From contig JBIOXV010000005.1 in NCBI GenBank assembly GCA_044869805.1, forward strand, positions 64,034-128,033: a stretch of 64,000 nt of DNA, written 5' to 3'. The DNA comes from Thermoanaerobaculia bacterium. Its GTDB lineage: Bacteria > Acidobacteriota > Thermoanaerobaculia > Multivoradales > SZUA-115. Positions within the stretch are counted from its first letter, which is position 1. Every line of letters begins with the position of its first letter. This document shows positions 312 to 58,217 of the stretch, piece after piece. The notes under the pieces are model-generated. The model did not search any database. It had not been told where the DNA came from and saw only the letters and a program-made list of their open reading frames with translations. A program made the translations under genes and the position numbers.

Positions 312-2495
312 GTGAAGCCGCAGACCCTGAAACCGAGCTGGAACTGGACCCTGCTCATCGCCCTCGCGCTGCTCCTGGTGCCGGTCGCCCGAGGGCAGAA
401 GAACTTCACCGAGACGGCGTCCGTGGTGGTCATCGAGGTCCCGGTCAACGTCACCGTCGGCGGTGAGCCGGTGCGTGGCCTGACGATCGAGAACTTCGAG
501 GTGCTGGACGGCCGCAAGCCGCAGCCCATCGTCGGCTTCGAGATCGTCGACCTGGGGGTCTCGCAAGCGGCCGGGGGCGGCGCCGCCCCCGGGCGCGCGC
601 TCCCCACCTCCAGCCGGCGCCACTTCCTGCTCTTCTTCGATCTCTCCTTCTCCGACCCCGGAGCCATTCTCCGGGCCCGTGACGCGGCAAAGGAGATGGT
701 CTCCTCCAACCTGCGGCCCGAGGACCTGGCCGGGGTCGTCTCCTACGCCGCCAACACCGGCCTCGCCGTGATCCTGAACTTCACCTCCGATCGCACCCAG
801 CTCCAGCTCGCCCTCGACACCCTCGGCGCGCCCAACCTGACAGCCACCAACGACCCTCTGGGCCTGATGATCGGCGCCCCGGGCGTGGGCGGGGTCGGAG
901 GGGCGGCCGGTCGGGGGGCTCGCCAGGAGTCCGCGGTGGCGGTCGAGACCTACGTCACCGACCTCTCCAAGATGATCAACCGCTCGGACCGGGACGAGAT
1001 GCAGGCCAAGGTCACCTCGATGACCCGGCAGCTCGGCGACCTCGGCCGCATGCTCGACGGCGTCGAAGGGCGCAAGTACGTCGTCTACCTCTCCGAGGGC
1101 TTTGACGATCAGCTCCTGGTCGGCGGCGGCGGCAGCGTTCGCTCGGGCGGTGGGGGCGGTGGGGGCAGCGGAGCCGGCGATCCCGACATCGCCACCTCCG
1201 CGGCTTCCTCGGCGAGCGACGACATCGCCTTCGGCAACATCGCCGGCGTGTCGACCGACGAGATGTTCGGCAGCGGCAAAGTGCAGAATGCCCTGCAGGC
1301 CGCTCTGCAGGCCTTCAAGCAGGCCAACTGCACCATCCACGCGGTCGACATCGGGGGTCTGCGGGCCGGCGGCAGCATCCGCGGCCAGATCTCGGGATCC
1401 AACGCGCTGTCGAGCATGGCGAGCGAGACCGGCGGCGAGGTGTTCCGAAACTTCAACGACCTGTCGCAGGCCATGGACCTGCTGCTGCAGAAGACCAGCG
1501 TCACCTACATCCTCGCCGTGCAGCCGGAGGACCTCAAGCGCGACGGCAAGTACCACGGACTCAAGGTGCGCTTGCGGAACGCGCCCAAGGGCGCCGAAGT
1601 CCAGGCGCGCCCCGGCTTCTACGCGCCGCTGCCGCTCACCCAGCAGAGCCGGATGGAGCGCAACCTGCGCGCCGCCGACGACCTCTTCGGCGCCGAGGGC
1701 GGCGCGCTGCAGACGGCGGTGGTGGCGGCGCCCTTCCGCGCCCCGGAAGGCAAGGCCTACGTGCCGGTGCTGATCGAGGCCAACGGCAAGTCGCTGATCG
1801 CGGGGGTCAAGGGCCCCATGCTGCCGCTCGAGATCTACACCTACGCCCTCGACCCCGCGGGCGCGGTGCACGACTTCTTCGCCCAGACCCTGGGGGTGGA
1901 CTTGAAGCAGGCGAGCGCCCTGCTCCAGCAGACCGGGCTCAAGTACTACGGCCACCTCGACCTCGACCCCGGCGAGTACTCGGTGCGCGTGCTGGTGCGC
2001 AACCTGGAGACCGGGATCTCGTCGCTGCGGGTGGTGCCGGTCACCGTGCCGGACTACGCCAAGGGCGAGGTCAGCCTCGCGCCGCCCGCCTTCCCCGAGC
2101 CGTTGGGCAAGTGGCTGATGGTGCGCGAGGCCCCCGAGCGCCAGCGCAACGTGCCCTTCCCCTTCATGCTCAGGGACCAGCCGTTCCTGCCCTCGGCGTC
2201 GCCGGCGTGGCCGGCCCAGGGAGAGACGCAGATTCCGGTGGCCGCCTTCAACCTCGGCCAGGGGCCGCTGGGCGCCGACGTCAAGCTGCGCTCCGCCGAG
2301 GGCGCGGAGCAGAAGGGCCTGCAAGTGGCCAAGATCGAGCGCGTGCCGGGCGCCATCCCGGGCTCGGAGACGCTGCTCGTCGGTCTCAAATACTCCGGCC
2401 TGGCGCCCGGCCGCTACCGGCTGGAGGTCGTGGTCACCGACCAGGGCACCGGCCGCAGCGGCTCGAGCTCGGCGGAGGTGACCGTCGCCGACTAG
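312..2495 (+). CDS. Secreted von Willebrand factor type A (VWA) domain protein, Acidobacterial VWFA-related family
   Basis: GTG start preceded by GGAGG. N-terminal signal peptide. VWA/MIDAS-like block (HFLLFFDLSFSD...). 727 aa with a long C-terminal extension. The opposite-strand 848-aa ORF is an antisense artefact. Confidence 0.8.
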   Translation: MKPQTLKPSWNWTLLIALALLLVPVARGQKNFTETASVVVIEVPVNVTVGGEPVRGLTIENFEVLDGRKPQPIVGFEIVDLGVSQAAGGGAAPGRALPTSSRRHFLLFFDLSFSDPGAILRARDAAKEMVSSNLRPEDLAGVVSYAANTGLAVILNFTSDRTQLQLALDTLGAPNLTATNDPLGLMIGAPGVGGVGGAAGRGARQESAVAVETYVTDLSKMINRSDRDEMQAKVTSMTRQLGDLGRMLDGVEGRKYVVYLSEGFDDQLLVGGGGSVRSGGGGGGGSGAGDPDIATSAASSASDDIAFGNIAGVSTDEMFGSGKVQNALQAALQAFKQANCTIHAVDIGGLRAGGSIRGQISGSNALSSMASETGGEVFRNFNDLSQAMDLLLQKTSVTYILAVQPEDLKRDGKYHGLKVRLRNAPKGAEVQARPGFYAPLPLTQQSRMERNLRAADDLFGAEGGALQTAVVAAPFRAPEGKAYVPVLIEANGKSLIAGVKGPMLPLEIYTYALDPAGAVHDFFAQTLGVDLKQASALLQQTGLKYYGHLDLDPGEYSVRVLVRNLETGISSLRVVPVTVPDYAKGEVSLAPPAFPEPLGKWLMVREAPERQRNVPFPFMLRDQPFLPSASPAWPAQGETQIPVAAFNLGQGPLGADVKLRSAEGAEQKGLQVAKIERVPGAIPGSETLLVGLKYSGLAPGRYRLEVVVTDQGTGRSGSSSAEVTVAD

Positions 2496-2505: not shown

Positions 2506-3675
2506 ATGCCGGCACTGGTGCGTTTGAAGGCCGGTCGGGACAAGGCCGCCCGCCGTGGCCACCCCTGGATCTTCTCCGGCGCCGTCGCCTCCGCGGAGGG
2601 CGGCGAGCAGCCGGTCGCGCGCGTGCTCGGTGCCGGCGGCGAGGACCTGGGGCTCGGCTTCTTCCAGCCTGCGTCTCGCATCCCGGTGCGCCTCGTCGGC
2701 CACGGCTTCCCGGACCTCGATCGCGCCTTCTTCGCCGCCCGCCTGGCCGAGGCCGCGGCGCTGCGCGCCTCGCTGCTGCCGCCGGAAACCTCCGGCTACC
2801 GCGTGCTCAATGCCGAGGGCGACGGCGTGCCCGGCTGGACCGTCGACCGCTTCGGGGACGCGCTGGTCAGCCAGATCACGGCCGGCGGCCTGGAGCGCCT
2901 GCGCCACGAGGCCTACGCAGCGCTGGGCGCCGCTTTCCCCGGCCTCGCCATTCTTCAGCGCAACCGTTTGCGAGCCCGCCGCCAGGAGGGCCTGCCCGAG
3001 GTGGACGAGGCGGTGGCCGGTCAGCCGCCCGAGGTGGCGGGCTTCACCGAGCACGGCCTGGCCTTCACCGCCGCGCTCGCGGGTGGGCAGAAGACCGGTT
3101 TCTACTGCGACCAGCGCGAGAACCGCCGTCTGGCCGAGCGGCTGGCCGGCGGACGCGCGGTGCTCGACCTCTTCGCGCATACCGGTGCGTTTGCAGCCTA
3201 TGCTCTGCGCGGCGGCGCCCGCACGGTGGTGGCCGTGGAATCGGCACCGCGCCTGACGGCGGTCGCCTCGCACCACCTCGCGGCCAACGGCCTCGATGCC
3301 GGCCGGCTCGAGTGGGTGGAGGCCGACGTCTTCGCCGACCTCCGGCAGCGTGGCGACCGCTACGACCTGGTGGTCTGCGACCCGCCGCCCCTGGTGCCAC
3401 GCAAGAGCGACCTCGACCGCGGCAGCCGCGCCTACAAGGATTTGAACCGCCTGGCCCTGGGCCGCGTGGCGCCCGGCGGGTTCCTCCTGACCTTCACCTG
3501 CAGCGGCGCGGTCGACGCCCGCCTGTTTCGCCAGATCCTCTTCGCCGCCGCGGACGAGGCGCGCGCACGCGTCTCGCTCCTCGCTCCGCTCGCCGCCGCG
3601 CCCGACCATCCGATCGACGTGCGCCATCCGGAAGGGGAGTACCTCAAAGGCTGGCTCTGCATCCGCCTGGCGTAG
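2506..3675 (+). CDS. rlmI: 23S rRNA (cytosine1962-C5)-methyltransferase RlmI-like (PUA + class I SAM MTase)
   Basis: The KTGFYCDQRENR motif, the DLFAHTGAF SAM-binding motif and the DPPP catalytic motif are typical of RlmI/RlmK. Confidence 0.8.
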   Translation: MPALVRLKAGRDKAARRGHPWIFSGAVASAEGGEQPVARVLGAGGEDLGLGFFQPASRIPVRLVGHGFPDLDRAFFAARLAEAAALRASLLPPETSGYRVLNAEGDGVPGWTVDRFGDALVSQITAGGLERLRHEAYAALGAAFPGLAILQRNRLRARRQEGLPEVDEAVAGQPPEVAGFTEHGLAFTAALAGGQKTGFYCDQRENRRLAERLAGGRAVLDLFAHTGAFAAYALRGGARTVVAVESAPRLTAVASHHLAANGLDAGRLEWVEADVFADLRQRGDRYDLVVCDPPPLVPRKSDLDRGSRAYKDLNRLALGRVAPGGFLLTFTCSGAVDARLFRQILFAAADEARARVSLLAPLAAAPDHPIDVRHPEGEYLKGWLCIRLA

Positions 3676-3715
3676 ACGGTGCGCCGGCGTCCGCTCGCGG
3701 CCACGGCGCCGTCCT

Positions 3716-3743
3716 GCCGAGGCCACAGATCTCGGCCTTTTTG
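3716..3743 (+). terminator. Rho-independent terminator after rlmI
   Basis: GCCGAG-gccacagat-CTCGGC stem-loop followed by CTTTTTG, 41 nt after the rlmI stop. Confidence 0.6.
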
Positions 3744-3767
3744 CGCGTCCCTGTATGCAGCGCGGCG

Positions 3768-3783
3768 TGGCATCGGCGTTGCA
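3768..3783 (+). promoter_or_regulatory. Candidate sigma-54 (-24/-12) promoter upstream of the TPR-CRTAC1-TPR cassette
   Basis: TGGCAT-cggcg-TTGCA matches TGGCAC-N5-TTGCW with one mismatch. It lies about 130 nt upstream of the TPR gene start. An 8-bp stem-loop (CTCGAGGG...CCCTCGAG, 3836-3865) sits in the putative leader. Confidence 0.35.
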
Positions 3784-3913
3784 AAACCCTCCGTTGCCTA
3801 CGAGCCGATTCCTCTGATCGCACCCACCCCAACGGCTCGAGGGAGTGCCTGCGTGCCCCCTCGAGCTCCCGCCTCGCCAACCCGCACGGAACGCATCGAG
3901 TGAGCCGAGTATC

Positions 3914-5563
3914 ATGCGTTTGATGCGCGCCCTGGCGTTCGCAATGCTCTGTTGCTTCGCGATCGCCGCCCAGCGGTCGCCCGCTGCGACCGCGGACCCT
4001 CCGGCGTCTGCCTCCGCATCGCCCTCGCCTTCGCAGCAGGCCTTCGAGCAGGCGCTCGCCGAGGTCCGCGCCGGCAGGCCGCAGTCCGCGCTCGCCATCC
4101 TCGAGCCCCTGCGCGGCCAGGCGTCGACCGAGCCCCCGGTGCTGGCCTTGCTCGGCGCGGTGTACCTCGAGTCGGGCCGGCCGCAAGATGCGCTGGCGGT
4201 CCTCGAGCCGCTGGCCAGCTCCCAGGCGGCCGATCCCGCCGTGCTCTACAACGCGGCACGGGCGGCGAAGGCGAGCGGGCAGGAGGAGAAAGCTCTGGCA
4301 TGGCTGGCGCGCTCGGCGGCCCTGGCGCCGGTCTCCCCCGCGGCACGCGAGCTGGGCCTCGCGCACGGCCGGGAGGGACAGTGGGAGGACGCCTATCGGC
4401 TGCTGCGGCCATGGGCCAAGGCGGTGGCGGGCGACGTCGAGGGCCGCCAGGCCGCGGCCTTTGCGGCGGTGAGGCTGGGCCGGCCGGCCGAGGCGCGGGA
4501 CCTCCTCGCCGGCCTGCCGCCCGACCCACCGCCGCGCCGGGTGCTGGAAGCCGAGATCTGTTTCGCGGAAGGAGACCCGAACGCCGCGCTCGCCGCCCTG
4601 GAGCCACTGCTCAGAGTGCCGCCGCCGGGCCTCGCTCGCGAGGTACGGCGCCTCGCCGCCGACGCGAACCTGTCCACGGGCCGCGCTGCCGAAGCCGTGG
4701 CGCAGCTCGCCGGGCACACCGGGGGCGATGCCGCGCTCGCGCTGCTCCTCGCCCAGGCCCAGTTCCAGACCGGCGAGGTGGAAGCGGCGCTCGCGACGCT
4801 CGAGCCCTTCGTGCCTCGCGACGCCTCCCACGCCGGCGCCGGGCCGAGCCTCGACCTCGAGTACGGCCGCATGCTGGTGGCCGCCGGCCGCGCCACGGAA
4901 GCCATCGACATCGTGCGCCGCGGCCTCGCCCGCCTACCCGAGGACCGGCAGGGCTGGCAAACGCTCGCCCAGGCGCTGCTGGCGGCCGGCCGCCGCGACG
5001 AGGGCCAGCAGGCGCTGGAGCGCTTTCGCGCGCTCGCCGCCGCCGAGGCCTCGGCTGCCGAGCGCAAGCGCGAGCTCGAGGCCACGGCCCGCGATGCCAC
5101 CGCCGCCGGCCTCGAACGCGCCATGGCGGCGCTCGCCGCCGGCCGGCCGGAGGACGCGCTGGCCCTGGCGCGGCGCGAGGCTTCGCTGGTCGCCGACGAC
5201 CCGCGGCCGCCGCTCGTCGCCGGCCACGTGCTGTTGACTCTGGGGCGCTACCAGGAAGCGCTCGCCGCCACCGAAGCTTCCCTGCGCCTCGCTCCCGACC
5301 AACCGGATGCGCTCTACCAGCACGGTGTCGCGGCTCTGGGGTCGGGCGACGTGGCGCGGGCCGAGAGCGACCTGCGGCGGGCGCTGGAGCTCGCGCCCGG
5401 GCACCTCGCGGCGCTGAACGATCTCGCCGTGCTGCTGCTCGGGACCGGCCGGAAGGAGGAGGCCGGCGGGCTCCTCGAGCGCGCCCTCGCGCTCAAGCCG
5501 GACGACCCGCGCGCGCGGCAGAGCCTGGAGAAGCTGAGAACGAGCCCCCCAGGAAGCAGATGA
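3914..5563 (+). CDS. Secreted TPR-repeat protein
   Basis: Start at MRLMRALAFAMLCCFAIAA (signal peptide). The 5' extension shown in the track is unlikely. Repeated TPR-like A/L-rich helices. Paralog of 7361..8986. Confidence 0.75.
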   Translation: MRLMRALAFAMLCCFAIAAQRSPAATADPPASASASPSPSQQAFEQALAEVRAGRPQSALAILEPLRGQASTEPPVLALLGAVYLESGRPQDALAVLEPLASSQAADPAVLYNAARAAKASGQEEKALAWLARSAALAPVSPAARELGLAHGREGQWEDAYRLLRPWAKAVAGDVEGRQAAAFAAVRLGRPAEARDLLAGLPPDPPPRRVLEAEICFAEGDPNAALAALEPLLRVPPPGLAREVRRLAADANLSTGRAAEAVAQLAGHTGGDAALALLLAQAQFQTGEVEAALATLEPFVPRDASHAGAGPSLDLEYGRMLVAAGRATEAIDIVRRGLARLPEDRQGWQTLAQALLAAGRRDEGQQALERFRALAAAEASAAERKRELEATARDATAAGLERAMAALAAGRPEDALALARREASLVADDPRPPLVAGHVLLTLGRYQEALAATEASLRLAPDQPDALYQHGVAALGSGDVARAESDLRRALELAPGHLAALNDLAVLLLGTGRKEEAGGLLERALALKPDDPRARQSLEKLRTSPPGSR

Positions 5564-5576
5564 ACACGGGAAGCAG

Positions 5577-7289
5577 ATGAACAGATTTGCTGCGCGACGG
5601 CCTCTTCACCAGCTCCTGCGCACCATGCATCGCGTCTCGACACCGATGCTCCTCGCTTGGTTCGCCTTCCTCGCCGGGGCCCAGGAGCCGTCGGCAATCC
5701 GCTTCCGTGAGGTGGCGAACGCCTGGGGCCTCGACTTCCGGCACCACCACGGCGGCTCCGGCCAGTACTTCATGGTCGAGACCATGGGCGGCGGCGTGAT
5801 CCTCTTCGACTACGACGGCGATGGCGACGCCGACGCCTTCTTCGTCGACAGCGGCGCGCTGCCCGGCTATCAGGGCGAGCCCGCCCGCTCGCGCCTGCTG
5901 CGCAACGACGGCGGGGGCCGCTTCGTCGACGTCACCGGTGACTCCGGCCTCGCGCTCAAGAGCTATGGCATGGGCGGCTCCGCCGGCGACGTCGACGGCG
6001 ACGCCGATCTCGACCTCTACGTCACCGCCTTCGGCAAGAACCAGCTCTTCGTGAACCAGGGCGATGGGCGGTTCACCGACGCCGGCGCCGGCTCGGGCGC
6101 CGACCTCGACTCGTGGAGCGCCTCGGCGGCGTTGGCCGACGTGGACCACGACGCCGACCTCGACCTCTTCGTGACCACCTACGTCGACTTCCGGCTCGAC
6201 AACCACAAGTTCTGCGGCGACCGCGAGCGCGGCATCCAGAGCTACTGCTCGCCGGAGGTCTACCAGGGCCTGCCCGAGCGCTTCTTCCGCAACCGCGGCG
6301 ACGGCACCTTCGAGGACGCGACCGCGGCGGCGGGCCTCGGCGGCGCGCTCGGCAACGGCCTGGGCGTGGTGGCCGCCGACCTGACCGAGGACGGCTGGCC
6401 CGACGTCTACGTGGCCAACGACGCCTCACCCAACTTCCTGTTCAAGAACCGCGGCGACGGCAGCTTCGAGGACATTTCGCTCGCCTCGGGCACCGCCTTC
6501 GGCGACCGCGGGCGGCCGGAGGGAGGCATGGGGGTGGCGGTGGCCGACTACGACGCCGACCTGCTGCCCGACATCGTGGTCACCAACTCGGAGCTCGAAA
6601 CCAACTCGCTGTTCAAGAACCTGGGCGGCGAGCTGTTCCGCGACAGCCGCTACGTGGCGCGGATCGCCGAGCCGTCGCTGATGGAGGTGGCCTTCGGCGT
6701 CGCCTTCGCCGATCTCGACAACGACGGCGACCCCGACCTTGCGATCGCCAACGGCCACATCCTCGACAACGCAGAGTTGTTCGCTGCCCGCAACACCTAC
6801 AAGCAACGCAACCAGGTGTTCGAGAACCTGGGCGGTGGCAAGTTCCGCGAGCTCCTGGACACCGGCGTCGACGTGGTGCGGGCGAGCCGTGGCCTGGCGG
6901 TGGGCGACCTCGACGCCGACGGCACGCTCGACCTCGTGATCGTCAACTGCAACGACGTCGCCGAGGCCTACCAGAACGCGACGGCGGGCGGCCATTGGCT
7001 GGCGGTCGAGCTCGCCGGCACGGCGAGCAACCGCTCGGGGCTGGGCGCCACGATCGAAGTGAGAGCCGGCGCCAGCCGGCAGGTGCAGGAGGTGCAGAGC
7101 GCCTCCTCGTACCTGTCGCAGAACGAGGCGGCGCTGCACTTCGGCCTCGGCCCGGCGACAGCGATCAACGAGCTCATCGTGCGCTGGCCGAGCGGCAGGC
7201 GCCAGCGGTTCCTCGGCCTCGCCGCCGACCGGCGGTTGCGGATCGCGGAAGGCGAGCCGACGCCGGCGCCCGCCGCCAGAGCGCAGTAG
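5577..7289 (+). CDS. CRTAC1-family protein (FG-GAP/VCBS repeats + ASPIC/UnbV C-terminal domain)
   Basis: Signal peptide. Repeated DxDGDGxxD calcium-binding FG-GAP motifs (DYDGDGDAD, DVDGDADLD, DLDNDGDPD). C-terminal ASPIC/UnbV-like segment (GTASNRSGLGATIEV...SYLSQNE). Confidence 0.85.
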   Translation: MNRFAARRPLHQLLRTMHRVSTPMLLAWFAFLAGAQEPSAIRFREVANAWGLDFRHHHGGSGQYFMVETMGGGVILFDYDGDGDADAFFVDSGALPGYQGEPARSRLLRNDGGGRFVDVTGDSGLALKSYGMGGSAGDVDGDADLDLYVTAFGKNQLFVNQGDGRFTDAGAGSGADLDSWSASAALADVDHDADLDLFVTTYVDFRLDNHKFCGDRERGIQSYCSPEVYQGLPERFFRNRGDGTFEDATAAAGLGGALGNGLGVVAADLTEDGWPDVYVANDASPNFLFKNRGDGSFEDISLASGTAFGDRGRPEGGMGVAVADYDADLLPDIVVTNSELETNSLFKNLGGELFRDSRYVARIAEPSLMEVAFGVAFADLDNDGDPDLAIANGHILDNAELFAARNTYKQRNQVFENLGGGKFRELLDTGVDVVRASRGLAVGDLDADGTLDLVIVNCNDVAEAYQNATAGGHWLAVELAGTASNRSGLGATIEVRAGASRQVQEVQSASSYLSQNEAALHFGLGPATAINELIVRWPSGRRQRFLGLAADRRLRIAEGEPTPAPAARAQ

Positions 7290-7360
7290 CTCGCCGCTTT
7301 CGCCAGGCTGGCCCGCGCCCCGCGGCAGGGGGCACGAGAGATGCAAGCTAGAATCCCCCC

Positions 7361-8986
7361 ATGAGCCGACTCCCCGTCCACCTCTTCCTGGCGCTCGCAA
7401 CCCTCGCCTCGCTGCCGCCCGCGGCGGCGCAGGCACCTGCCCCCGCTCCCTCGGCCTCGCAACCGACCACGATCTTCGACCGCGCCGTGCGCGAGATGGA
7501 AGAGGGCCGCCCGCAAGCGGCGATCGCGCTGCTCGAGCCGCTGCGCCGCGACCCCAAGGCCCCGGGGCCGGCCCTCGCGCTGCTCGGCATCCTCTACCTC
7601 GAAACCGGCGACCCGGCGCTGGCGCTCGCCGTGCTCGAGCCGCTCGCCGCGGCCGAGAAGCCCGACCCGGCAGTGCTCTTCCACACCGCCCGCGCCGCGG
7701 CGGCTGCCGGCCAGCAGGACAAGGTCGAGCCGCTGCTCGAGCGCTCGGTGGCGATCTCGCCGCAGTCGCCGGCGGCGCGGGAGCTGGGGCTGCTGCGGCT
7801 ACGCCAGGGCCGGCTCGGCGACGCGCTCGCCCATCTCGGACCCTGGACCGAGTCGCAGCCGAACGACGTCGAGGCACGACTTGCCGCGGCGCAGGCTGCG
7901 GTGCGCATCGGCAACGCCCAAGCGGCTTCGGCGCTGATCGCGGGCCTGCCCCCGGAGGCCCCGGCCGCTCGCTTGCTCAGGGGCGAGCTCGCCCTGGCAC
8001 AGGGCGACGCGGCGGCGGCGCTCGAAGCCGTGAAGCCGCTACTCGAGAAGGACGAGGGCGGCCTGTCGAGCGACGCGCGGGGCATCGCGGCCGAAGCCCA
8101 TCTGCAGCAGAATGACCCTGCCGCGGCGGCGCGGGTGCTCGCCGGCAAGGTGGGTCAAGACCCGCAGCTCTCGCTGCTCTCGGCTCGCGCGCTCCGCCTG
8201 ACCGGAAAGCTCGGCGAGTCGGCGGCGGTGCTCAAGCCGTTCGCCGAGGAGGTGCTCGCCGCCCCCAACCCGCACCGTGTCTCGCCCTTCGCCAGCGCCA
8301 TCCTGCTCGACTACGGCCGCGTCATGGTGGCCTCCGGCCGCTCCCGCGAAGGGGCGGCCGCGCTCGAGCGCGCCGTGGCCTTGAACCCCGCGAGCCTTCA
8401 GGCCTGGCAGACCCTGGCCGAAGCCCAGACCAGCCTCGGCGAGACCCAGAAAGCCAACGCCGCCAAAGAGCGGGCGGCGCAGCTCATCGCGGCGCAGGAG
8501 CAGGCGCTCGCCGCCTCGCAGGCCGCGAGCCCGGGCGGCGCCGACCTGGCGCCGGTGATGGAGGCGCTCGCCACCGGCGAGCCCGACAAGGCGCTCGATC
8601 TTGCCCGCCAGCAGGCGCTGCGCGTGCCCGGCGACCCACGCCCGCGGATGATCGCGGTGCGCATCCTGGTGTCGTTCAACCGCCTCGACGAGGCGCTGCA
8701 GACCACCGAGGCGCTGGTGGCCCAGTTCCCCGGCAACGCCGACGCGGTCTACCAGCGCGGCGCGCTGCGCATGAACCGTGGCGACAGCTCCGGCGCCGAG
8801 CAGGATCTGCGCAAGGCGATCTCCCTCTCGCCCGATCACCCGGCGGCGATGAACGACCTCGCCGTGCTGCTGATGACCAGGAGACAGTTCCCCGAAGCGA
8901 AGAAGCTGCTCGAGCGGGTCCTCGAGCTCAACCCGCAGGACGCGCTGGCCGCCCAGAACCTGAAGCGCCTGGAAGAGAGCTCGTAG
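7361..8986 (+). CDS. Secreted TPR-repeat protein (paralog of 3914..5563)
   Basis: Signal peptide MSRLPVHLFLALATLASLPPAAAQA. Collinear similarity to the first TPR gene (AIALLEPLR..., PAARELGL..., AGLPPE...). Confidence 0.8.
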   Translation: MSRLPVHLFLALATLASLPPAAAQAPAPAPSASQPTTIFDRAVREMEEGRPQAAIALLEPLRRDPKAPGPALALLGILYLETGDPALALAVLEPLAAAEKPDPAVLFHTARAAAAAGQQDKVEPLLERSVAISPQSPAARELGLLRLRQGRLGDALAHLGPWTESQPNDVEARLAAAQAAVRIGNAQAASALIAGLPPEAPAARLLRGELALAQGDAAAALEAVKPLLEKDEGGLSSDARGIAAEAHLQQNDPAAAARVLAGKVGQDPQLSLLSARALRLTGKLGESAAVLKPFAEEVLAAPNPHRVSPFASAILLDYGRVMVASGRSREGAAALERAVALNPASLQAWQTLAEAQTSLGETQKANAAKERAAQLIAAQEQALAASQAASPGGADLAPVMEALATGEPDKALDLARQQALRVPGDPRPRMIAVRILVSFNRLDEALQTTEALVAQFPGNADAVYQRGALRMNRGDSSGAEQDLRKAISLSPDHPAAMNDLAVLLMTRRQFPEAKKLLERVLELNPQDALAAQNLKRLEESS

Positions 8987-8998
8987 GAGAAGCTGCGC

Positions 8999-9274
8999 AT
9001 GACGACCATCCGTAACACTGGCCGCAAACCGGTCCGCGTACCGCTGCCGCTGGGCAAGTCCCTCTTTCTCGGCCCCGGCAAGAGCGGGCAGATCACCGAT
9101 CACGCCGTCGACCATCCGGGAGTGCAGAAGCTGCTCGCGGCGGGTGAGATCGAGGTCTCCACCGAGGCCCAGCACGGGCAGCGGCCCGAGGGCACCGGCG
9201 GCGGTGGCCACCCGGCCACCCACGGGCACGTGCCCACCACGCAGGCACCGCGCCGCGGCGATCGTGGCGGCTGA
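8999..9274 (+). CDS. Small hypothetical protein (91 aa)
   Basis: Good SD (AGGAGAAG) 7 nt upstream of the ATG. Structured N-terminal 50 aa, then a low-complexity tail. No family recognised. Confidence 0.35.
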   Translation: MTTIRNTGRKPVRVPLPLGKSLFLGPGKSGQITDHAVDHPGVQKLLAAGEIEVSTEAQHGQRPEGTGGGGHPATHGHVPTTQAPRRGDRGG

Positions 9275-9338
9275 GGCGGAAGCCGAGCCCGCACCCACGG
9301 CCGGGCACTAGACTAGGGCGCACTCCTTCGGAGGTGCC

Positions 9339-10088
9339 ATGCTCGGGGCCGCCTTTGTCTACCTCGGCCTCACCCTGCTCTTCGTCGGCGGCGTGTCGAT
9401 CTTGAAGCCGCTGCGCTTGCTGGCCATCCGCAGCCGGCTCCACGGCGCTCTCGTCGCAACCTCGGGGCTCGCCGCCCTGCTGGTGGGCATCGTCCTGCCC
9501 GCGCCCGCGATCCGGGTGAGCGAGCCGCGCCATAGGCTGGACGAGATCATCCCCGAGTACCAGTTCTCGGAGCACCACTCGCTGGTGGTCCAGGCGCCGC
9601 CGTCTCGCGTCGCAGCCGCCACCCGGGAAGTCACCGCTCGCGAGATCCGCCTTTTCCGCTTCTTGACCTGGCTGCGGGCCCCACGCCTCGGCGAGAGAAG
9701 AGAGTCGATCCTCAATCCGTCGCCCGATCGACCGATCCTAGAAGTCGCCCTCTCCTCGGGCTTCGTGCCGCTCGCCGAGGTGGAGGATCGTGAGATCGTC
9801 TTCGGGACCCTGGTGATCGCTCCCCCCGGCTTCCGGCGGGACAGCATCGCCACCACCGGGGACTTCGCCATACTCCGCGATCCCGGCTACGCCAAGGCGG
9901 TGATGAACTTCCACTACGCCGCTCGTGGCGACGGCTCGACCCTGCTCGAGACCGAGACCCGCGTCTTCGCCACCTCGGCCGACGCCCGCCGCCGCTTCGC
10001 CCCGTACTGGCGGCTCATCTACCCCGGCAGCTCGCTGATCCGCCGGATGTGGCTTGAGGCGATCCGCAAGCGGGCAGTGATCGGCTGA
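9339..10088 (+). CDS. Hypothetical membrane-anchored protein
   Basis: GGAGG 5 nt upstream of the ATG. Two N-terminal TM helices, then a soluble domain of about 170 aa. No confident family. Confidence 0.55.
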   Translation: MLGAAFVYLGLTLLFVGGVSILKPLRLLAIRSRLHGALVATSGLAALLVGIVLPAPAIRVSEPRHRLDEIIPEYQFSEHHSLVVQAPPSRVAAATREVTAREIRLFRFLTWLRAPRLGERRESILNPSPDRPILEVALSSGFVPLAEVEDREIVFGTLVIAPPGFRRDSIATTGDFAILRDPGYAKAVMNFHYAARGDGSTLLETETRVFATSADARRRFAPYWRLIYPGSSLIRRMWLEAIRKRAVIG

Positions 10089-10250
10089 TCCTCGGGCTGC
10101 AAGGGACTGGCGACTCCATCCATCTTTTTCTAACAGGCCATGGACCTGGTCATATACCGGCAACTCTCCTGTCGGAAGGCTCTGATTGATGTCCGTCTAA
10201 GGGACTTGGATTGAGTCGAGCACTGGCCCGACGGACCAAAGGAGAGCCGG

Positions 10251-10931
10251 ATGAGAACCGAACGAAGAGTCTCGGCGGCGGGTGTCGCGCTAACGCTGAT
10301 CCTCTCGATGCTGGCAGCCTCTGAGGTTGGCGCAGAGGTCACGCTGACCCCGCGACAGGACGAAATCAAAGACAGCGAAGACAGCGCGCAGGACGCCGCT
10401 TCCCCCGAGGAACTCGCCCAAAAGGAGGCCGCTCTGAACAGCTTCCTCGGCTTCGACTGGAGCGCTGGGATCGCGGTCACTGGCGACTTCACCAGCGAGC
10501 GCCGGATCGACGACGCTGAGCTGGTGAATGGCGTAGTGCGGGTCAAGGACGAGTCTCGATATCTGCCCCGCATCATGCTCGAAGCACACTACCTCTTCCG
10601 CTCCTGGGGAGATCAAAAGATCGACCGAGCCCTGCGAGCCGACGGCAAGACGTACTTCGTCACCAAGGGGCATGGGCCCTTCGTAGCGATTCAGTCGAGC
10701 GACAAGCAGGCCCTCGATTCTTTCGCCGCGGGCTACCTCTTCGGCTGGCGTCCAGACTCTACCAAGGAATGGTCATTCGTCATGGGGGCCGGAGCGGTTC
10801 TCGATCCCAACGTTCAGATCCTCGGTGACGGGATCCAGGCCAACCAGGCGCTCCCCGAAGGAGAGACGGCGATCCGGTACAAGAAAGTGGACCGCTGGGG
10901 CTGGATGCTGATGTTCTCGTTCAAGCTCTGA
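10251..10931 (+). CDS. Secreted hypothetical protein, lower GC than the surroundings
   Basis: AAGGAGAG RBS. Signal peptide (LTLILSMLAASEVGAEV). C-terminus ends in aromatic-rich ...MLMFSFKL. GC is about 58% against a roughly 70% background. Confidence 0.6.
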   Translation: MRTERRVSAAGVALTLILSMLAASEVGAEVTLTPRQDEIKDSEDSAQDAASPEELAQKEAALNSFLGFDWSAGIAVTGDFTSERRIDDAELVNGVVRVKDESRYLPRIMLEAHYLFRSWGDQKIDRALRADGKTYFVTKGHGPFVAIQSSDKQALDSFAAGYLFGWRPDSTKEWSFVMGAGAVLDPNVQILGDGIQANQALPEGETAIRYKKVDRWGWMLMFSFKL

Positions 10932-11009
10932 GGCCGGGCGCCATCTGCTGCCGTCGGCCCTTGCCTCCTTACGAGCGGGGCGATACTCTCTCCGCCGTAA
11001 GGAGGAATC

Positions 11010-11306
11010 ATGGCGGTCAGCACTCTCACCTCCAAAGGTCAGCTCACCGTCCCACGAGAGGTCCGGGAACGGCTTGGGGTTTCGCAAGGCGACCGGATCA
11101 CTTTCCGCTTCGACGAGCATGGACGGCTGTTCCTGGAGCCGGAGAAGACCAGCGAGGGCCCGAGGATCTCTGGTCTGCTCCGACATCTGGCTCCCAGTCG
11201 CGCCGTGACCGTCGAGGAGATGGACGAGGGCATCGCCGAGTACGTGTCTCTCAAGGCCGAGGCGATTCGCACGAAGGGACGCTTCGATCCCGAGACGGAC
11301 GTTTGA
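11010..11306 (+). CDS. vapB: Type II antitoxin, AbrB/MazE/SpoVT family (VapB-like)
   Basis: N-terminal swapped-hairpin motif MAVSTLTSKGQLTVPREVRERLGV. Overlaps the downstream PIN gene start by 1 nt. Confidence 0.8.
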   Translation: MAVSTLTSKGQLTVPREVRERLGVSQGDRITFRFDEHGRLFLEPEKTSEGPRISGLLRHLAPSRAVTVEEMDEGIAEYVSLKAEAIRTKGRFDPETDV

Positions 11307-11704
11307 TGATCGCCGTCGACACCAACGTCCTGCTGCGCCTTCTGATCCATGACGACGCCCGCCAGAAGGAGACTGTCGATCGCTTGCTGCAAGCTGCGCG
11401 GGAGCAGGGTGAGGTTTGCTTGGTGAGCAACCCGGTCCTCTGCGAGATCGAATGGGTCTTGACGAGGACCTATCGCGCAAAGCGCAGGGACTGCGCGGTC
11501 GCGTTCCAAGGGTTGCTCGAAGATCCCTTCTTCGTCTTCGAGGATCGCAGTGCCGTCGGCCGGGCGCTGGTCCTCTTTCAAGAAGGCAGAGCCAGCTTTG
11601 CGGACTACCTGATCGGCGAGATCGGACAGACACAGGAAGCGCGGACGACTCTTACGTTCGATCGCGACCTGGCTGGTCATCCGGGGTTCACGGTACTCGG
11701 TTGA
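11306..11704 (+). CDS. vapC: PIN-domain ribonuclease toxin VapC
   Basis: MIAVDTNVLLRLL... with the acidic PIN residues (D5, E, D near the C-terminus). The ATG at 11306 overlaps the vapB stop (TGATG). Confidence 0.8.
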   Translation: MIAVDTNVLLRLLIHDDARQKETVDRLLQAAREQGEVCLVSNPVLCEIEWVLTRTYRAKRRDCAVAFQGLLEDPFFVFEDRSAVGRALVLFQEGRASFADYLIGEIGQTQEARTTLTFDRDLAGHPGFTVLG

Positions 11705-11757
11705 CCGCTGCGCCATCTCTCAACCCTCACCCAAACTCCGATGCCCAGGAGACTTCC

Positions 11758-13500
11758 ATGCCTCGAGCCCCTCGGCCCCCCGCTTTACTGTTCCTCGCTC
11801 TGCTCCTCGGCACGGTGATGCCAGCCGGCGCTGAAGGGCCAGCGGACCTCCGCTTCAGCGTCACCTACGACGCCGCGCTCTCCTCGGCGCCGCTCGACGG
11901 GCGGCTGCTGTTGCTGATCGCGAAGCAAGCCGAGCCCGAGCCGCGGCTGCAAGTGGCGGCGGGAGTGCGCGCGATCGAGGTGCTGGGGATCGACGTCGAC
12001 GGCTGGAAGGCGGGCGAAGCCGCGGTGATCGACGGAGGCGTGTTCGGCTACCCCGTGGCGAGCCTCGCGGACCTGCCGGCCGGGGACTACTCCGTGCAGG
12101 CGGTGCTCCACCGCTACGAGACCTTCCGCCGCGCCGACGGCCACGCGGTGAAGCTGCCCATGGACCGCGGCGAGGGCCAGCACTGGAACCTGGCACCGGG
12201 CAACCTGCTTTCGCAGCCGATGCCCGTCAAGCTCGACCCGGCGAAGGGCGGCAACGTCGCCGTGAAGCTCTCCTCCGCGATCCCGCCGATCGAGCCGCCT
12301 AAGGACACCAAGTATGTCCGCCACCTGAAGATCCAGAGCAAGCTGCTCTCCGACTTCTGGGGCCGGCCCATGCACCTGGGCGCGCACGTGCTGGTGCCGG
12401 AGGGCTTCGACGATCACCCGGAGGCGCGCTACCCGCTGATCGTCTTCCACGGCCACTTCCCGGAGGACTTCGGCGGCTTCCGCGAGGAGCCGCCCGACCC
12501 CAACCTGGAGCCGGACTACAGTGAGCGCTTCGGAATCCACGGCTACAACCGCATCCAGCAGCAGGAGGCTCATGCCTTCTTCAAGCAGTGGACAAGCCCC
12601 GGCTTTCCGCGTCTGCTGATCGTCGAGATCCAGCACGCCAACCCCTACTACGACGACTCTTACGCCGTGAACTCGGCCAACCTCGGGCCCTACGGTGACG
12701 CCATCAACCACGAGCTGATCCCGGAGATCGAGCGCCGCTTCCGGGGCCTCGGCGAGGGCTGGGCGCGCTTCACCTACGGCGGCTCGACCGGCGGCTGGGA
12801 GGCGCTGGCGACGCAGGTCTTCTACCCCGAGATGTACAACGGCTGCTTCGCCGCCTGCCCCGACCCGATCGATTTCCGCGCCTATACGCAGGTCAACGTC
12901 TACGAGGACGACAACGCCTACTACCGCCGCGGCCCCTTCGCCACCGTCAAGCGCCCCGGCCACCGCAACTACCTGGGCCAGGTGGACGTCACGCTCGAGG
13001 ACTACAACCACCTGGAGCTGGTGCTGGGCGAGAAGAGCCGCTCCGGCGACCAGTTCGACATCTGGGAGGCGGTGTACTCGCCGGTCGGGCCGGACGGCTA
13101 CCCGAAACGCATCTGGGACAAGCGCACCGGCGTGATCGACAAGGAGGTCGCGGCCCACTGGCGCGAGCACTACGACCTGCGCCACATCCTGGAACGCGAC
13201 TGGGCCAAGCTGGGGCCGAAGCTCACGGGCAAGATCCACGTCTACTGCGGCGACATGGACAACTACTACCTCAACAACGCCGTCTACCTGATGGAGGACT
13301 TCCTGGAGAAAACCACCGAGCCGTACTACGGCGGCGAGGTGGACTACGGCGACCGCGCCGAGCACTGCTGGAACGGCGATCACGCGAACCCCAACTACCT
13401 CTCCCGGCTGCGCTACAACACCCTGTACGTGCCGAAGATCCTGAAGCGCATCGAACAGAGCGCGCCGGCGGGCGCGGACCTCAAGAGCTGGAGGTACTGA
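11758..13500 (+). CDS. Secreted alpha/beta-hydrolase esterase (enterochelin-esterase-like / putative esterase family)
   Basis: Start chosen at MPRAPRPPALLFLALLLG (signal peptide), in frame within the longer track ORF. Esterase-family core FHGHFPEDFGG ... YGGSTGGWEALATQVFYPEMYNGCFAACPD. Confidence 0.75.
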   Translation: MPRAPRPPALLFLALLLGTVMPAGAEGPADLRFSVTYDAALSSAPLDGRLLLLIAKQAEPEPRLQVAAGVRAIEVLGIDVDGWKAGEAAVIDGGVFGYPVASLADLPAGDYSVQAVLHRYETFRRADGHAVKLPMDRGEGQHWNLAPGNLLSQPMPVKLDPAKGGNVAVKLSSAIPPIEPPKDTKYVRHLKIQSKLLSDFWGRPMHLGAHVLVPEGFDDHPEARYPLIVFHGHFPEDFGGFREEPPDPNLEPDYSERFGIHGYNRIQQQEAHAFFKQWTSPGFPRLLIVEIQHANPYYDDSYAVNSANLGPYGDAINHELIPEIERRFRGLGEGWARFTYGGSTGGWEALATQVFYPEMYNGCFAACPDPIDFRAYTQVNVYEDDNAYYRRGPFATVKRPGHRNYLGQVDVTLEDYNHLELVLGEKSRSGDQFDIWEAVYSPVGPDGYPKRIWDKRTGVIDKEVAAHWREHYDLRHILERDWAKLGPKLTGKIHVYCGDMDNYYLNNAVYLMEDFLEKTTEPYYGGEVDYGDRAEHCWNGDHANPNYLSRLRYNTLYVPKILKRIEQSAPAGADLKSWRY

Positions 13501-13501
13501 A

Positions 13502-13530
13502 AGACGGCCGGCACAGGTCCGGCCGTCTTC
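13502..13530. terminator. Bidirectional stem-loop terminator between convergent genes
   Basis: AGACGGCCGG-cacaggt-CCGGCCGTCT 10-bp perfect stem immediately after the esterase stop and 75 nt after the convergent gene. Confidence 0.5.
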
Positions 13531-13604
13531 CTCCGACGAGGGCAAGCGCAAAGCAGCCAGTCGGATCGAAGGGTCACGCCGTGAAATACCCTTGACAGCA
13601 GCAG

Positions 13605-14339
13605 CTAGAGAGCCAACACTGCCGCCGACAGATCCACCACCCACGCTCCCGGCACGCGGGCCTCGACCACCAGGCGCGCGAGGTTGAGCCATCGCGGGCA
13701 GCGGTCGAGGATGGCGCTGTCGGCGGTAGCGACGACCGCCGGCGAGGCGGCGAGCTCGCGGTCCGGGCTCACCGCCAGCTCCACCTGCCACGGCCAGCCG
13801 CGGGCCTCGGCCGTGGCCTCGATCAGCGCCTTGAGGCGCCCGCTGTTCGAGATCGGCCGGTCGAGCAGCCAGGAGACGCCGGCGGGGCCCAGCCCGGCGA
13901 GATAGCCGCCGATCTCCTCGAGGCCGGGCAGGGTCTGGCTCACGCGGCGGTAGTGGCCCGAGATCGAGGCCATGTCGCGCATCGTGCCGTCGCGGCCCAG
14001 CAGCACCACGCCGCCGCCGAGCGCCACCTCCACGGTGACCAGCAGGTTGTAGCCGTCGACGGCGAGCTCCTGGCCGGCCAGGGCCTCGGGTCCGACCCGC
14101 CGCTGCTCGCGCCGGGCACGATCCTCGTCGCTCGCCGCCACGCGTTGCAGGGCGATGCGCTGGCGGGCCCGCAGCGCGTGGCGGTCACCGACCAGGGTGA
14201 GGGCCGCCGCCTTCGAGTAACCGCGCGATAGCAGCCAGCACAGCTCCTCGGCCGCCGCGCGCAAGGTGGGGAGATGCTGCGGCGCAAACTCCTCGGCGTC
14301 CTTGGGGTGGGCGCCGCGGTTGGTGCGGCGGTCGGGCAT
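13605..14339 (-). CDS. Hypothetical protein, DUF434/DUF5616-like
   Basis: 244-aa ORF with coherent codon usage. Weak recollection of DUF434-type motifs (DGYNLLVTVEVALGGG...LGRDGTMRDMA). The overlapping + strand ORFs are artefacts. Confidence 0.45.
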   Translation of the reverse strand: MPDRRTNRGAHPKDAEEFAPQHLPTLRAAAEELCWLLSRGYSKAAALTLVGDRHALRARQRIALQRVAASDEDRARREQRRVGPEALAGQELAVDGYNLLVTVEVALGGGVVLLGRDGTMRDMASISGHYRRVSQTLPGLEEIGGYLAGLGPAGVSWLLDRPISNSGRLKALIEATAEARGWPWQVELAVSPDRELAASPAVVATADSAILDRCPRWLNLARLVVEARVPGAWVVDLSAAVLAL

Positions 14340-14470
14340 GGAGCCATCATCCCATGCCGCTCAGGGCGGCCTCGCCCAACTCTCCCCGTTGCAACCCGCA
14401 CCCGGTTTCGCCGTATCCTCAAGGCCATGGGAGCCGCCTCGCGCGGCGTCCGCCGCCCCTTGCCCCGACC

Positions 14471-34245: not shown

Positions 34246-34320
34246 GGCGACGCGCGAGCGCACGTCGCTCCCTGCTTTGGCATCGCCCTTGCTCGTACTC
34301 CCCTGCGGGAGGAACGCTCC

Positions 34321-56384: not shown

Positions 56385-56780
56385 TCAGGCTGCGTGGCTC
56401 AGCAGGCGATCCGCCAGCGCCGCCAGCTCGGGCAGGGGCATGGGCTTGCCGAGCATGGCGTCGGCGCCCAGCCCCAGGGCCTCGGCCTCGGCCTCGGGCG
56501 AGCCGTAGGCGGTGAGCACCACGATGCGCATGCCCGGCCGCCGGCGGCGGGCGAAGGCCACCAGGTCGAGGCCCTCGGCAGGCTCGCGGGCGGAGAGGCG
56601 GAGATCGACGATCATCAGCGCGTAGGGCCGCTCGGCGATCAGCGCTTCGGCGGCCGAGCGTTCGCCGGCGGCGTCGACTGCGTACCCGCGGGCGGAAAAA
56701 AAGTCGCGCAGAGCGAAGAGGATCGTGGTCTCGTCGTCGACCACCAAGAGGCGAGGCAGGGGTGGCTCGGGGAAGACCAC
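56385..56780 (-). CDS. Single-domain response regulator (REC)
   Basis: LLVVDDE...DLRL...GADAMLGKP receiver motifs. A GTG start at 56780 is proposed because the track ATG (56810) lies inside a sigma-54 promoter. TTG at 56747 is an alternative. Confidence 0.65.
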   Translation of the reverse strand: MVFPEPPLPRLLVVDDETTILFALRDFFSARGYAVDAAGERSAAEALIAERPYALMIVDLRLSAREPAEGLDLVAFARRRRPGMRIVVLTAYGSPEAEAEALGLGADAMLGKPMPLPELAALADRLLSHAA

Positions 56781-56858: not shown

Positions 56859-58217
56859 TCAGGACGGCTGTCCGGATTCTGGAAACCTGATCCCGAAACG
56901 CTTGAGCTTCTGGTACAGCGTGCTGCGCGGCACGCCGAGCCGCTCGGCGACGCGCGCCACGCGCCCACCCTCCTCCGCCAGCACGCGCTCGATCAGCCGC
57001 CGCTCCATCTGCTCGAGGGTGAGGCGGGTGTCGATCGCCTCGCCCGCGGCTACGCCCGGGGCGAAGCGCAGGTCACGGGCATCGACCACCGCGCCTTCGG
57101 CCAGCAGGATGGCCCGCTCGAGCACATTGCGCAGCTCGCGGAGGTTGCCCGGCCAGCGGTAGGCGGCGAGCGCCTTCATGGCCTCGGAGGTGAGCTCGAC
57201 CTCGCCGCGGCCGAGCTCCGGCCGCAGCCGCTCGAGCACCGTCGCCACGAGCTGCGGCAGGTCGTCCAGGCGCTCGCGCAGCGGCGGGATCACCAGCGGG
57301 ATCGCCGCCAGCCGGTAGTAGAGATCGCTGCGGAAGGTGCGCCGCTCGACGAGCAGCGAGAGGTCCCAGTGGGTGGCCGAGATCAGGCGGATGTCCACGG
57401 CCCGGTCCTTGACGTCGCCCAGCCTGCGGAACCGCTTCTCCTCCAGCACCTTGAGCAGCTTGGGCTGGACTCCGACCTCGAGGTCGCCGATCTCGTCCAG
57501 GAACACCGTGCCGCGGTGCGCGGCCTCGAGCAGGCCGGCTTTGTGGAACGCGGCGCCGGTGAAGGCGCCCTTGACGTGCCCGAAGAGCTCGCTTTCGACC
57601 AGCTCCCGTGACAGGCCGGCGCAGTTCAAGTCCACGAACGCCTCCTCCGCGCGCGGGCCGCGGGCGTGCAGCCAGGCGGCGAGCACCCCCTTGCCGGAGC
57701 CGGTCTCGCCCTGGATCAGCAGCGGGCTCTCGCTGTCCACCACCTTCGCCGCCTGGGCCCGGAGCTCCCGGATGCCGCGGCTCGAGCCCACGAACGGGTC
57801 GAGGGGCCGGCGCAGCCCCCCGGCCTTGCCCGCCATCGTCTTCTGCCGGTTGCGCTGGTTCTCGAGCGCCCGCTCGAGGATCACCTCCAGCGCCGAGAGC
57901 TCCACCGGCTTGGTCAGGAAGTGCTCGGCTCCCTCGCGGATCGCCTCGACGGCGAGGTCGATCGAGCCGTAGGCGGTGAGGATCACCACCGGCAGCCGCA
58001 GGTGGGCCTCTCGGAGGCCGGCCAGCAGCGCCAGGGCGTTGCCGTCCGGCAGGTGGTGATCGACCACCGCGGCGGCGAACGGCTGCGCCTGCAGCCGCTC
58101 CAGCGCTTCGCGCTGGGTGGCGGCCTCGGCCACCTCGAAGCCCCGGCTCTCCAGGAAGGCGCGGACGCCGAAGCGGACGGCGTCCTGGTCGTCGACGACG
58201 AGGATGCGCCCGCGCAT
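56859..58217 (-). CDS. Sigma-54-dependent response regulator (NtrC family: REC + AAA+ + Fis HTH)
   Basis: Start at MRGRILVVDD. GAFTGA loop (FGHVKGAFTGA), Walker A GETGSGKG, R-finger region. C-terminal HTH (RVAERLGVPRSTLYQKLKRFGI). Confidence 0.85.
   Translation of the reverse strand: MRGRILVVDDQDAVRFGVRAFLESRGFEVAEAATQREALERLQAQPFAAAVVDHHLPDGNALALLAGLREAHLRLPVVILTAYGSIDLAVEAIREGAEHFLTKPVELSALEVILERALENQRNRQKTMAGKAGGLRRPLDPFVGSSRGIRELRAQAAKVVDSESPLLIQGETGSGKGVLAAWLHARGPRAEEAFVDLNCAGLSRELVESELFGHVKGAFTGAAFHKAGLLEAAHRGTVFLDEIGDLEVGVQPKLLKVLEEKRFRRLGDVKDRAVDIRLISATHWDLSLLVERRTFRSDLYYRLAAIPLVIPPLRERLDDLPQLVATVLERLRPELGRGEVELTSEAMKALAAYRWPGNLRELRNVLERAILLAEGAVVDARDLRFAPGVAAGEAIDTRLTLEQMERRLIERVLAEEGGRVARVAERLGVPRSTLYQKLKRFGIRFPESGQPS

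Follow-up and report, generated by a model that had tools for sequence, protein, structure and literature searches.

The TPR-CRTAC1-TPR locus

The window, i.e. the whole stretch of DNA analysed here, consists of 64,000 nucleotides (nt) of contig JBIOXV010000005.1 (assembly GCA_044869805.1, positions 64,034-128,033), from a Thermoanaerobaculia bacterium of the Acidobacteriota; its GC content is 71%. Near its beginning, on the + strand, three genes are clustered: TPR1 (3914-5563), coding for a putatively exported protein of 549 amino acids (aa), entirely composed of tetratricopeptide repeats (TPR); a CRTAC1-family gene (5577-7289), coding for 570 aa when read from the ATG at 5577; and TPR2 (7361-8986), coding for a putatively exported paralog of TPR1, of 541 aa. 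Upstream, on the same strand, are found a candidate sigma-54 promoter of the -24/-12 type, TGGCATCGGCGTTGCA (3768-3783), and a stem-loop (3834-3867), located in the predicted 5' leader. All components of the locus belong to known kinds, as regards domain families, promoter type and the hairpin, which is unremarkable: although the cluster does exist, it amounts to an ordinary, local form of a gene pairing found in many organisms.

The initial annotation had described two paralogous, secreted TPR proteins flanking a CRTAC1-family protein. Domain content and paralogy were borne out by Pfam searches and by the alignment of TPR1 with TPR2, which spans both at full length, with 507 residues aligned and 44% identity (E = 4e-98). 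Secretion is supported by the N-termini of the three products, MRLMRALAFAMLCCFAIAAQ, MHRVSTPMLLAWFAFLAGAQ and MSRLPVHLFLALATLASLPPAAAQ, all of which, judged by eye, look like Sec signal peptides. The three genes are co-directional, as annotated, and the gap between CRTAC1 and TPR2 is indeed 71 nt; the 13 nt reported between TPR1 and CRTAC1 hold only if the latter starts at ATG 5577, and become 61 nt for ATG 5625. This second start is the more likely one, because the database protein P0001 (554 aa) begins there, and because CRTAC1 homologs feature a leader of about 22 aa ahead of a conserved IRFREV motif. The N-terminal hydrophobic segment ends in AGA/QEP. A Tat signal, suggested by a pair of arginines at residues 7-8 of the long form, was rejected: the hydrophobic core begins 13 residues later, and the leaders of the homologs are short and of Sec type.

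The CRTAC1-family protein

Membership of the middle protein in the CRTAC1/ASPIC-UnbV family is well founded. Pfam reports FG-GAP_3 in six stretches (2.3e-45), along with FG-GAP, and a C-terminal UnbV_ASPIC domain (PF07593, 3.7e-22, residues 488-554); seven motifs of the DxDxDG type, typical of calcium loops, are also present. The AlphaFold2 (AF2) model, built from an alignment of 33 sequences, scores 89.9 for predicted local distance difference (pLDDT) and 0.91 for predicted template modelling (pTM). It is all-beta, with recurring four-strand units which fit propeller blades; the protein is accordingly modelled as a seven-bladed FG-GAP propeller with Ca2+ loops, followed by UnbV_ASPIC.

The top Foldseek match of the model is murine CRTAC1 (9ETN_A, E = 7.6e-31, template modelling (TM) score 0.68/0.69), followed by fungal propeller lectins which bind GlcNAc and by integrin alpha subunits. 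Vertebrate CRTAC1/ASPIC shares with the window protein secretion, the FG-GAP propeller with DxDxDG loops and the UnbV_ASPIC domain placed after it. The two differ in that sequence identity to 9ETN is only about 20% (phmmer 1.3e-18, with residues 217-526 as the alignable stretch) and that no EGF-type domain is detected by Pfam in the window protein.

The family is huge: at E <= 1e-20, at least 7,909 homologs were found among the best 8,000 scored candidates, and genomes often hold several copies of bacterial CRTAC1/ASPIC-UnbV genes. Close bacterial homologs are annotated as "CRTAC1 family protein", "ASPIC/UnbV domain protein" or "enediyne biosynthesis protein E4". In agreement with the initial annotation, which considered the role of these proteins to be unknown, no experimental function for any bacterial member was found in the literature searched; the phrase "CRTAC1 family protein" occurs in one paper only (PMC12758564), which deals with anammox-related bacteria and with a gene neighbourhood of another kind.

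In 33 orthologs, 56-63% identical to the window protein, residues W34, H40, H41, E52, C197, Y207, C208, H378 and H505 (numbered from ATG 5625) are invariant, as are the aspartates of the calcium loops. A conserved FRHHHGGSG stretch near the N-terminus, located beyond the part which can be aligned by sequence to murine CRTAC1, may constitute a metal or active site. Exact look-ups of the protein, as the long form and as P0001, found no contig.

The TPR proteins

Both TPR proteins score above threshold for more than 15 Pfam TPR families each, with TPR_19 at 1.6e-38 for TPR1 and 6.7e-35 for TPR2. In the AF2 model of TPR1 (pLDDT 92.1) an uninterrupted helical superhelix, with 29 helices past the signal peptide, is predicted; on this basis, TPR1 and TPR2 would both be superhelices of roughly 14 repeats. 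About 65 full-length homologs of TPR1 were found, 40-52% identical to it and mostly from Thermoanaerobaculia: the TPR1-type family is small and specific, unlike the CRTAC1 family.

Foldseek matches of TPR1 are generic TPR scaffolds, including LbcA, the periplasmic adaptor of the CtpA protease (PDB 8SXF chain C, E = 3.5e-9). Like TPR1, LbcA is exported and consists of a single superhelix of TPR, about 530 aa long, and its role, that of adaptor for a partner encoded nearby, is the one suggested below for the window proteins. The analogy is functional only: the similarity is that of TPR proteins in general (TM about 0.3), LbcA is a lipoprotein while no lipobox is seen in the window TPR proteins, and its partner is a protease, which the partner in the window is not.

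TPR and CRTAC1 genes in other genomes

The association between the two gene types was evaluated in 82 CRTAC1 loci from many phyla: 80 are among the matches listed by a CRTAC1-profile scan, with one genome per species, and 2 come from direct look-ups. A TPR gene is found within 400 nt of the CRTAC1 gene in 34 of these 82 loci, and on the same strand in 31. Among the phyla involved are Acidobacteriota, Gemmatimonadota, Planctomycetota, Latescibacterota and Poribacteria. The density of TPR genes is 1.06 per 10 kb at distances of up to 2.5 kb from CRTAC1 genes, as compared to 0.083 elsewhere in the same loci, an enrichment of about 13-fold; in similar amounts of DNA, 46 are counted near CRTAC1 and 4 elsewhere. 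The reverse scan, run on metagenomes with a profile of the TPR family, gave 72 loci, 27 of which carry a CRTAC1 gene on the same contig; the TPR homologs most similar to TPR1 are those adjoining CRTAC1 genes. Profiling of TPR-CRTAC1 adjacency, proposed in the initial annotation, thus did not give the refuting outcome named there, TPR paralogs not co-conserved with CRTAC1.

In some Acidobacteriota and Latescibacterota, TPR, FG-GAP and UnbV_ASPIC are fused in single polypeptides, which contain the same two modules as the window. TPR repeats are N-terminal in L009 (9717-13160), L012 and L014, and C-terminal in L061 (7740-10877); a further fused protein is encoded by the L081 gene at 16936. The two fusion orders mirror the TPR1-CRTAC1 and CRTAC1-TPR2 neighbours of the window, where each module has a gene of its own. 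At about 200-400 aa, the TPR portion of a fused protein is shorter than TPR1 and TPR2, which it resembles only weakly (phmmer 23-28 bits). The existence of these fusions is the strongest argument for TPR and CRTAC1 modules working together physically.

The linkage between TPR and CRTAC1 is, in conclusion, real and broad, but loose. It is visible in domain architectures, and no paper discussing it was found in the literature searched. The useful result lies in the 13-fold enrichment and in the fusions, rather than in the cassette found in this window, and the TPR partner is the first thing to test.

Gene order and the U family

The specific TPR-CRTAC1-TPR order, as originally annotated, does not extend to the close relatives of the window. 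TPR genes on both sides of CRTAC1 were found in 3 of the 82 loci (L041, L058 and L060, among the matches listed), all of them distant, where the flanking TPR genes match the window TPR family weakly. CRTAC1 paralogs often occur in tandem (L029, L044, L074).

In many relatives the gene directly downstream of the TPR-family gene, often overlapping it by 4 nt, codes for an unannotated protein of 600-680 aa, here called U, which is absent from the window. Members are encoded at L147:8578-10626, L159:2474-4318, L158:2259-3689 and L131:8338-10326, and in about 20 further loci. They are 47-48% identical to each other and share a conserved PWPRDP motif and a C-terminal GGYRCAS motif; no match to U was found in Pfam, in NCBIfam or among PDB sequences. 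The two motifs recall enzymes which modify guanidino groups (penteins). The L158 member, located downstream of the closest TPR1 homolog, had been considered as a possible CRTAC1 protein: it was rejected as such, and assigned to U. A relationship between U and the VWA-domain protein encoded upstream of the cluster was also rejected.

The best syntenic relatives are two related Thermoanaerobaculia loci, L147 and L086, which share with the window the upstream VWA and rlmI genes (46% and 63% identity), a TPR1-type gene (364 bits) and a CRTAC1 ortholog (678 bits). They differ from it in that the TPR gene overlaps U by 4 nt, the CRTAC1 gene is convergent, and both a second TPR gene and a sigma-54 motif are missing. 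A TPR > U < CRTAC1 neighbourhood is also present in L159, another related Thermoanaerobaculia contig. In one relative, L160, the TPR gene is separated from a convergent CRTAC1 gene by the insertion of a FitA-like ribbon-helix-helix antitoxin and PIN toxin pair (2733-3400).

A candidate sigma-54 promoter

Classical sigma-54 promoters, such as glnAp2, follow the consensus TGGCAC-N5-TTGCW. TGGCATCGGCGTTGCA (TGGCAT-N5-TTGCA), at 3768-3783, is one mismatch away from it, as the initial annotation had pointed out: it agrees with classical promoters in the GG-to-GC spacing, which is canonical, in 15 of the 16 consensus positions and in its intergenic site upstream of a gene. It is located in the same orientation as TPR1 and 131 nt before its ATG (3914); transcription is predicted to start near 3795, about 119 nt ahead of the same ATG. 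Between the motif and the preceding rlmI-like methyltransferase gene (2506-3675, +), whose PUA_3 and Methyltrans_SAM domains fit RlmI, lies the intrinsic terminator of the latter (3716-3745, +), also previously annotated: it features a 7-bp GC-rich stem (3716-3736) with a 7-nt loop, followed by CTTTTTGCGC (CTTTTT).

Sigma-54 motifs are enriched in the window. Two sequences match TGGCAY-N5-TTGCW, as compared to 0.05 expected; on the two strands, five motifs with at most one mismatch are found, as compared to 0.95 expected, a number which none of 100 shuffled sequences reached. They are concentrated in promoter zones, here taken as non-coding DNA up to 200 nt ahead of a gene of the same orientation. 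These zones account for 3.2% of strand positions, where chance would place about 0.03 motifs with at most one mismatch; the actual number is four or five. In addition to the one preceding TPR1, three are intergenic, on the + strand: the motif at 207-222 lies 90 nt before the gene at 312, coding for an acidobacterial VWA-domain protein; the one at 34278-34293, 28 nt ahead of a gene (34321) for a glycine-zipper protein; the one at 59610-59625, 66 nt ahead of a gene (59691) for an M16 peptidase. The fifth, TGGCACGTGGCTTGCG (56809-56794, -), directly follows an NtrC-type activator gene and lies 14 nt before the GTG at 56780 of a response-regulator gene. This last case is ambiguous: GTG 56780 is the likely start, and the motif overlaps the ATG (56810) of the longest open reading frame (ORF) of the same gene.

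The NtrC-family activator (56859-58268, -) contains a receiver domain, Sigma54_activat (Pfam, 9.1e-60) and HTH_8, with a GAFTGA loop at 57569. Such a bacterial enhancer-binding protein (bEBP) indicates that genes of this bacterium are transcribed with sigma-54; no role in activating the cluster is attributed to it. Sigma-54 promoters are considered to be in use in the genome because motifs are enriched in promoter zones and because a bEBP is encoded. Judging from sequence, the site at 3768 is probably a real sigma-54 promoter.

A second, weaker motif with correct spacing, GGGCACGAGAGATGCA (7330-7345, +), has two mismatches and is located in the gap between CRTAC1 and TPR2, with its end 16 nt ahead of the ATG of TPR2. 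Of ten two-mismatch hits, no other falls inside a promoter zone; since about 0.3 are expected there by chance over the window, it is a low-confidence feature, and could be either an internal promoter or a chance match.

Two observations concern the candidate promoter at 3768 and similar motifs in other contigs. In the same-species contig L156, positions 1236-1506 differ from 3660-3930 of the window at 8 of 271 positions, 5 of which are clustered at 3790-3794, at the predicted transcription start; none falls in the 16-nt core or in the hairpin, and the differences are too few for significance. In L001, a metagenome-assembled genome of another Thermoanaerobaculia, the motif TGGCACGGAGGCTGCT (4182-4197) is intergenic and divergent from the upstream, minus-strand gene, and is located 24 nt ahead of the GTG with which a CRTAC1 > TPR-like > CRTAC1 cluster opens. 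The L001 site is suggestive, but was not counted as support for the promoter, about 0.5 chance hits being expected over everything that was scanned.

A probable transcription unit

TPR1, CRTAC1 and TPR2 are likely to be co-transcribed, as suggested by their common orientation and short gaps and by the fact that no + strand terminator is found at 3745-9500; the rlmI terminator is the only terminator-like site on this strand between 3400 and 9500. The junction between TPR1 and CRTAC1 features a 15-nt direct repeat with a period of 17, GGAAGCAGATGAACA (5552-5583, +): copy 1 holds the TPR1 stop codon inside an ATGA, while copy 2 holds ATG 5577. Without the duplication, TPR1 and the long form of CRTAC1 would share an ATGA stop/start overlap, and 4-nt start/stop overlaps are found at the equivalent junction in L158, L159 and L147. 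The duplication of ATGA thus points to translational coupling of the two genes in the past, as at the TPR > U junctions.

A small ORF (8999-9274, +; 91 aa), preceded by a GGAG Shine-Dalgarno sequence and located 12 nt past the TPR2 stop, may be co-transcribed with the cluster. Its product features a C-terminus rich in His and Gly and no signal peptide; no match was found in Pfam or NCBIfam, and no homolog in the 160 loci fetched for the analysis. The downstream ORFs at 8999, 9339, 10251 and 11416 were considered as conserved partners and rejected, as no homolog is found in any related locus and no family match is informative; the only match of ORF 11416, to Esterase, is below threshold.

The leader hairpin

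According to the initial annotation the leader would be structured, in view of a perfect 8-bp hairpin. The hairpin is there: CTCGAGGG and CCCTCGAG form a perfect 8-bp stem at 3836-3865, which extends to 3834-3867 as a 10-bp outer and a 4-bp inner stem (-23.0 kcal/mol), 40-73 nt into the predicted leader, and is all that the centroid fold of the leader retains. The leader as a whole is not distinct as "structured": its fold, over 127 nt, is at the level of shuffled sequences (z = -0.32, with 63 of 200 shuffles at least as stable); no Rfam match was found in 3400-9600 at E <= 1; the hairpin is not followed by a U-tract, and leaves ribosome-binding site and start codon unpaired with it; stems of this type are common in the window, with its 71% GC, which contains 125 perfect ones of 8 bp with short loops, or about 0.23 per 120 nt. 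Most probably the hairpin is incidental; at best it would stabilise the mRNA.

It might alternatively act as a cis-regulatory element, either at the RNA level, as an attenuator or a riboswitch-like sensor, or at the DNA level, as the operator of a repressor binding the CTCGAG-containing palindrome. The stability of the stem and its position within the leader fit such a role, and the perfect 8-bp stems of the window exceed the first-order Markov prediction (125 as compared to 73), so that some should be functional somewhere. Nonetheless this is improbable, in view of the features just listed and since the window contains no other copy of the two hairpin arms together. The copies of the leader that were found are all 99% identical, and the upstream regions of farther relatives are unrelated to it. 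TPR1 look-ups returned only short Logan contigs, 99% identical, which are uninformative on the conservation of promoter and hairpin.

Proposed role and alternative explanations

As a whole, the locus is best explained, with slightly better than even confidence, as a cluster of exported TPR, CRTAC1 and TPR proteins, expressed from a sigma-54 promoter, in which the TPR proteins scaffold the propeller. A transcript initiated near 3795, from the promoter at 3768-3783, would span TPR1, CRTAC1 and TPR2, and possibly the ORF at 8999. Its expression would be gated by an ATP-dependent enhancer-binding protein and by the signal which this protein senses. Sec would export all three products; once exported, the TPR superhelices would serve as adaptors or scaffolds, binding or positioning the propeller protein. 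Direct contact between the TPR proteins and the propeller is given just under an even chance. The propeller itself would most likely be a Ca2+-dependent module, binding an extracellular or periplasmic ligand, glycan or matrix; a role as enzyme appears less likely. A glycan is the favoured ligand, although this identification is doubtful. If regulation is as proposed, a bacterial CRTAC1 protein would be expressed upon a signal sensed by an enhancer-binding protein, which would provide a genetic handle on the role of the family; with a real sigma-54 promoter, the condition which induces the cluster would likewise become accessible to experiment.

A number of observations weigh against this picture, concerning both the promoter and the grouping of the genes. 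The sigma-54 motif may be non-functional and due to chance, the cluster being transcribed from an unrecognised promoter, of housekeeping or extracytoplasmic function (ECF) type, or by read-through from rlmI. Conservation of the motif is confined to the same species: even allowing one mismatch, it precedes neither the TPR gene of any of 63 related loci from metagenomes nor the gene which opens any of 6 co-directional runs of TPR and CRTAC1 genes, the relatives used for this comparison being distant (40-52% protein identity) and rearranged. Its core is identical in three same-species contigs, which, being 99% identical, are too close to inform. Upstream of TPR or CRTAC1 genes in the 160 fetched loci nothing significant was found, and over all fetched loci the motif rate is near chance (28 in 3.36 Mb of strand positions). 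In contrast to classical sigma-54 promoters, no activator-binding sites are recognised near TGGCATCGGCGTTGCA: a search of 3450-3770 found no inverted repeat except one at 3462-3479, inside rlmI, and the regions upstream of the five candidate promoters share no 8-mer, except a GC-only word. As rlmI ends only 92 nt upstream of the motif, there would be no space for an enhancer clear of both rlmI and the terminator. rpoN itself is absent from the window, where no RpoN box is found, so that sigma-54 is deduced from the bEBP. Given the weak motif at 7330, TPR2 might also have a transcription start of its own. A scan for the sigma-70 consensus found no site in 3400-9500 or in 8800-14500, and acidobacterial sigma-70 promoters may escape such a simple scan. 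All this notwithstanding, a chance origin of the motif is rather unlikely, given that so few exact and one-mismatch matches are expected over the window and that those observed are almost exclusively found in the small fraction of it made up by promoter zones, given the bEBP encoded in the window and, as to read-through, the good terminator which separates rlmI from the motif. The promoter claim of the initial annotation is thus plausible by enrichment, siting and bEBP, and is not backed by conservation at related loci.

The three genes could also be mere neighbours: in islands of paralogs subject to expansion and rearrangement, their products may act alone and form no complex, with U perhaps being the real partner of the TPR family. 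Orientation and order do vary widely in relatives, where arrangements such as CRTAC1 > TPR < CRTAC1 and TPR > U < CRTAC1 are seen, and the co-directional TPR-CRTAC1-TPR order occurs in no close relative. The frequent tandem CRTAC1 paralogs, and the syntenic relatives, where the TPR gene overlaps U and the CRTAC1 ortholog is convergent, point in the same direction. In 20 loci the TPR family is paired with U with no CRTAC1 gene in range, and in L082 a CRTAC1 ortholog is present without a TPR neighbour. To these findings are opposed the enrichment of TPR genes beside CRTAC1 genes in many phyla, the fusions in both domain orders, which are classic Rosetta-stone evidence for joint function, and the adjacency to CRTAC1 of the closest TPR1 homologs. 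Independent action of the three products is a serious possibility, towards which we do not lean; a functional TPR-CRTAC1-TPR cluster under sigma-54 control is preferred. The dedicated secreted complex suggested in the initial annotation is, for its part, putative. A more general proposal is tentative: TPR and CRTAC1 propeller might form a conserved, two-part extracytoplasmic module, with the TPR protein as adaptor and a propeller which either binds a ligand or is catalytic, found in more than ten phyla and sometimes fused or joined by U, which in this lineage would have been rebuilt as TPR-CRTAC1-TPR under a sigma-54 promoter.

Other features of the window

The VWA-domain gene preceding rlmI is located at 312-2495 (+) and matches TIGR03436 (acidobact_VWFA). 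On the other strand, the NtrC-type activator gene is neighboured by a histidine kinase gene (58217-59497, -) and followed by the stand-alone response-regulator gene already mentioned (about 56385-56780, -). The succession of histidine kinase and activator, TGGCACGTGGCTTGCG and response regulator looks like a textbook sigma-54 regulatory cascade.

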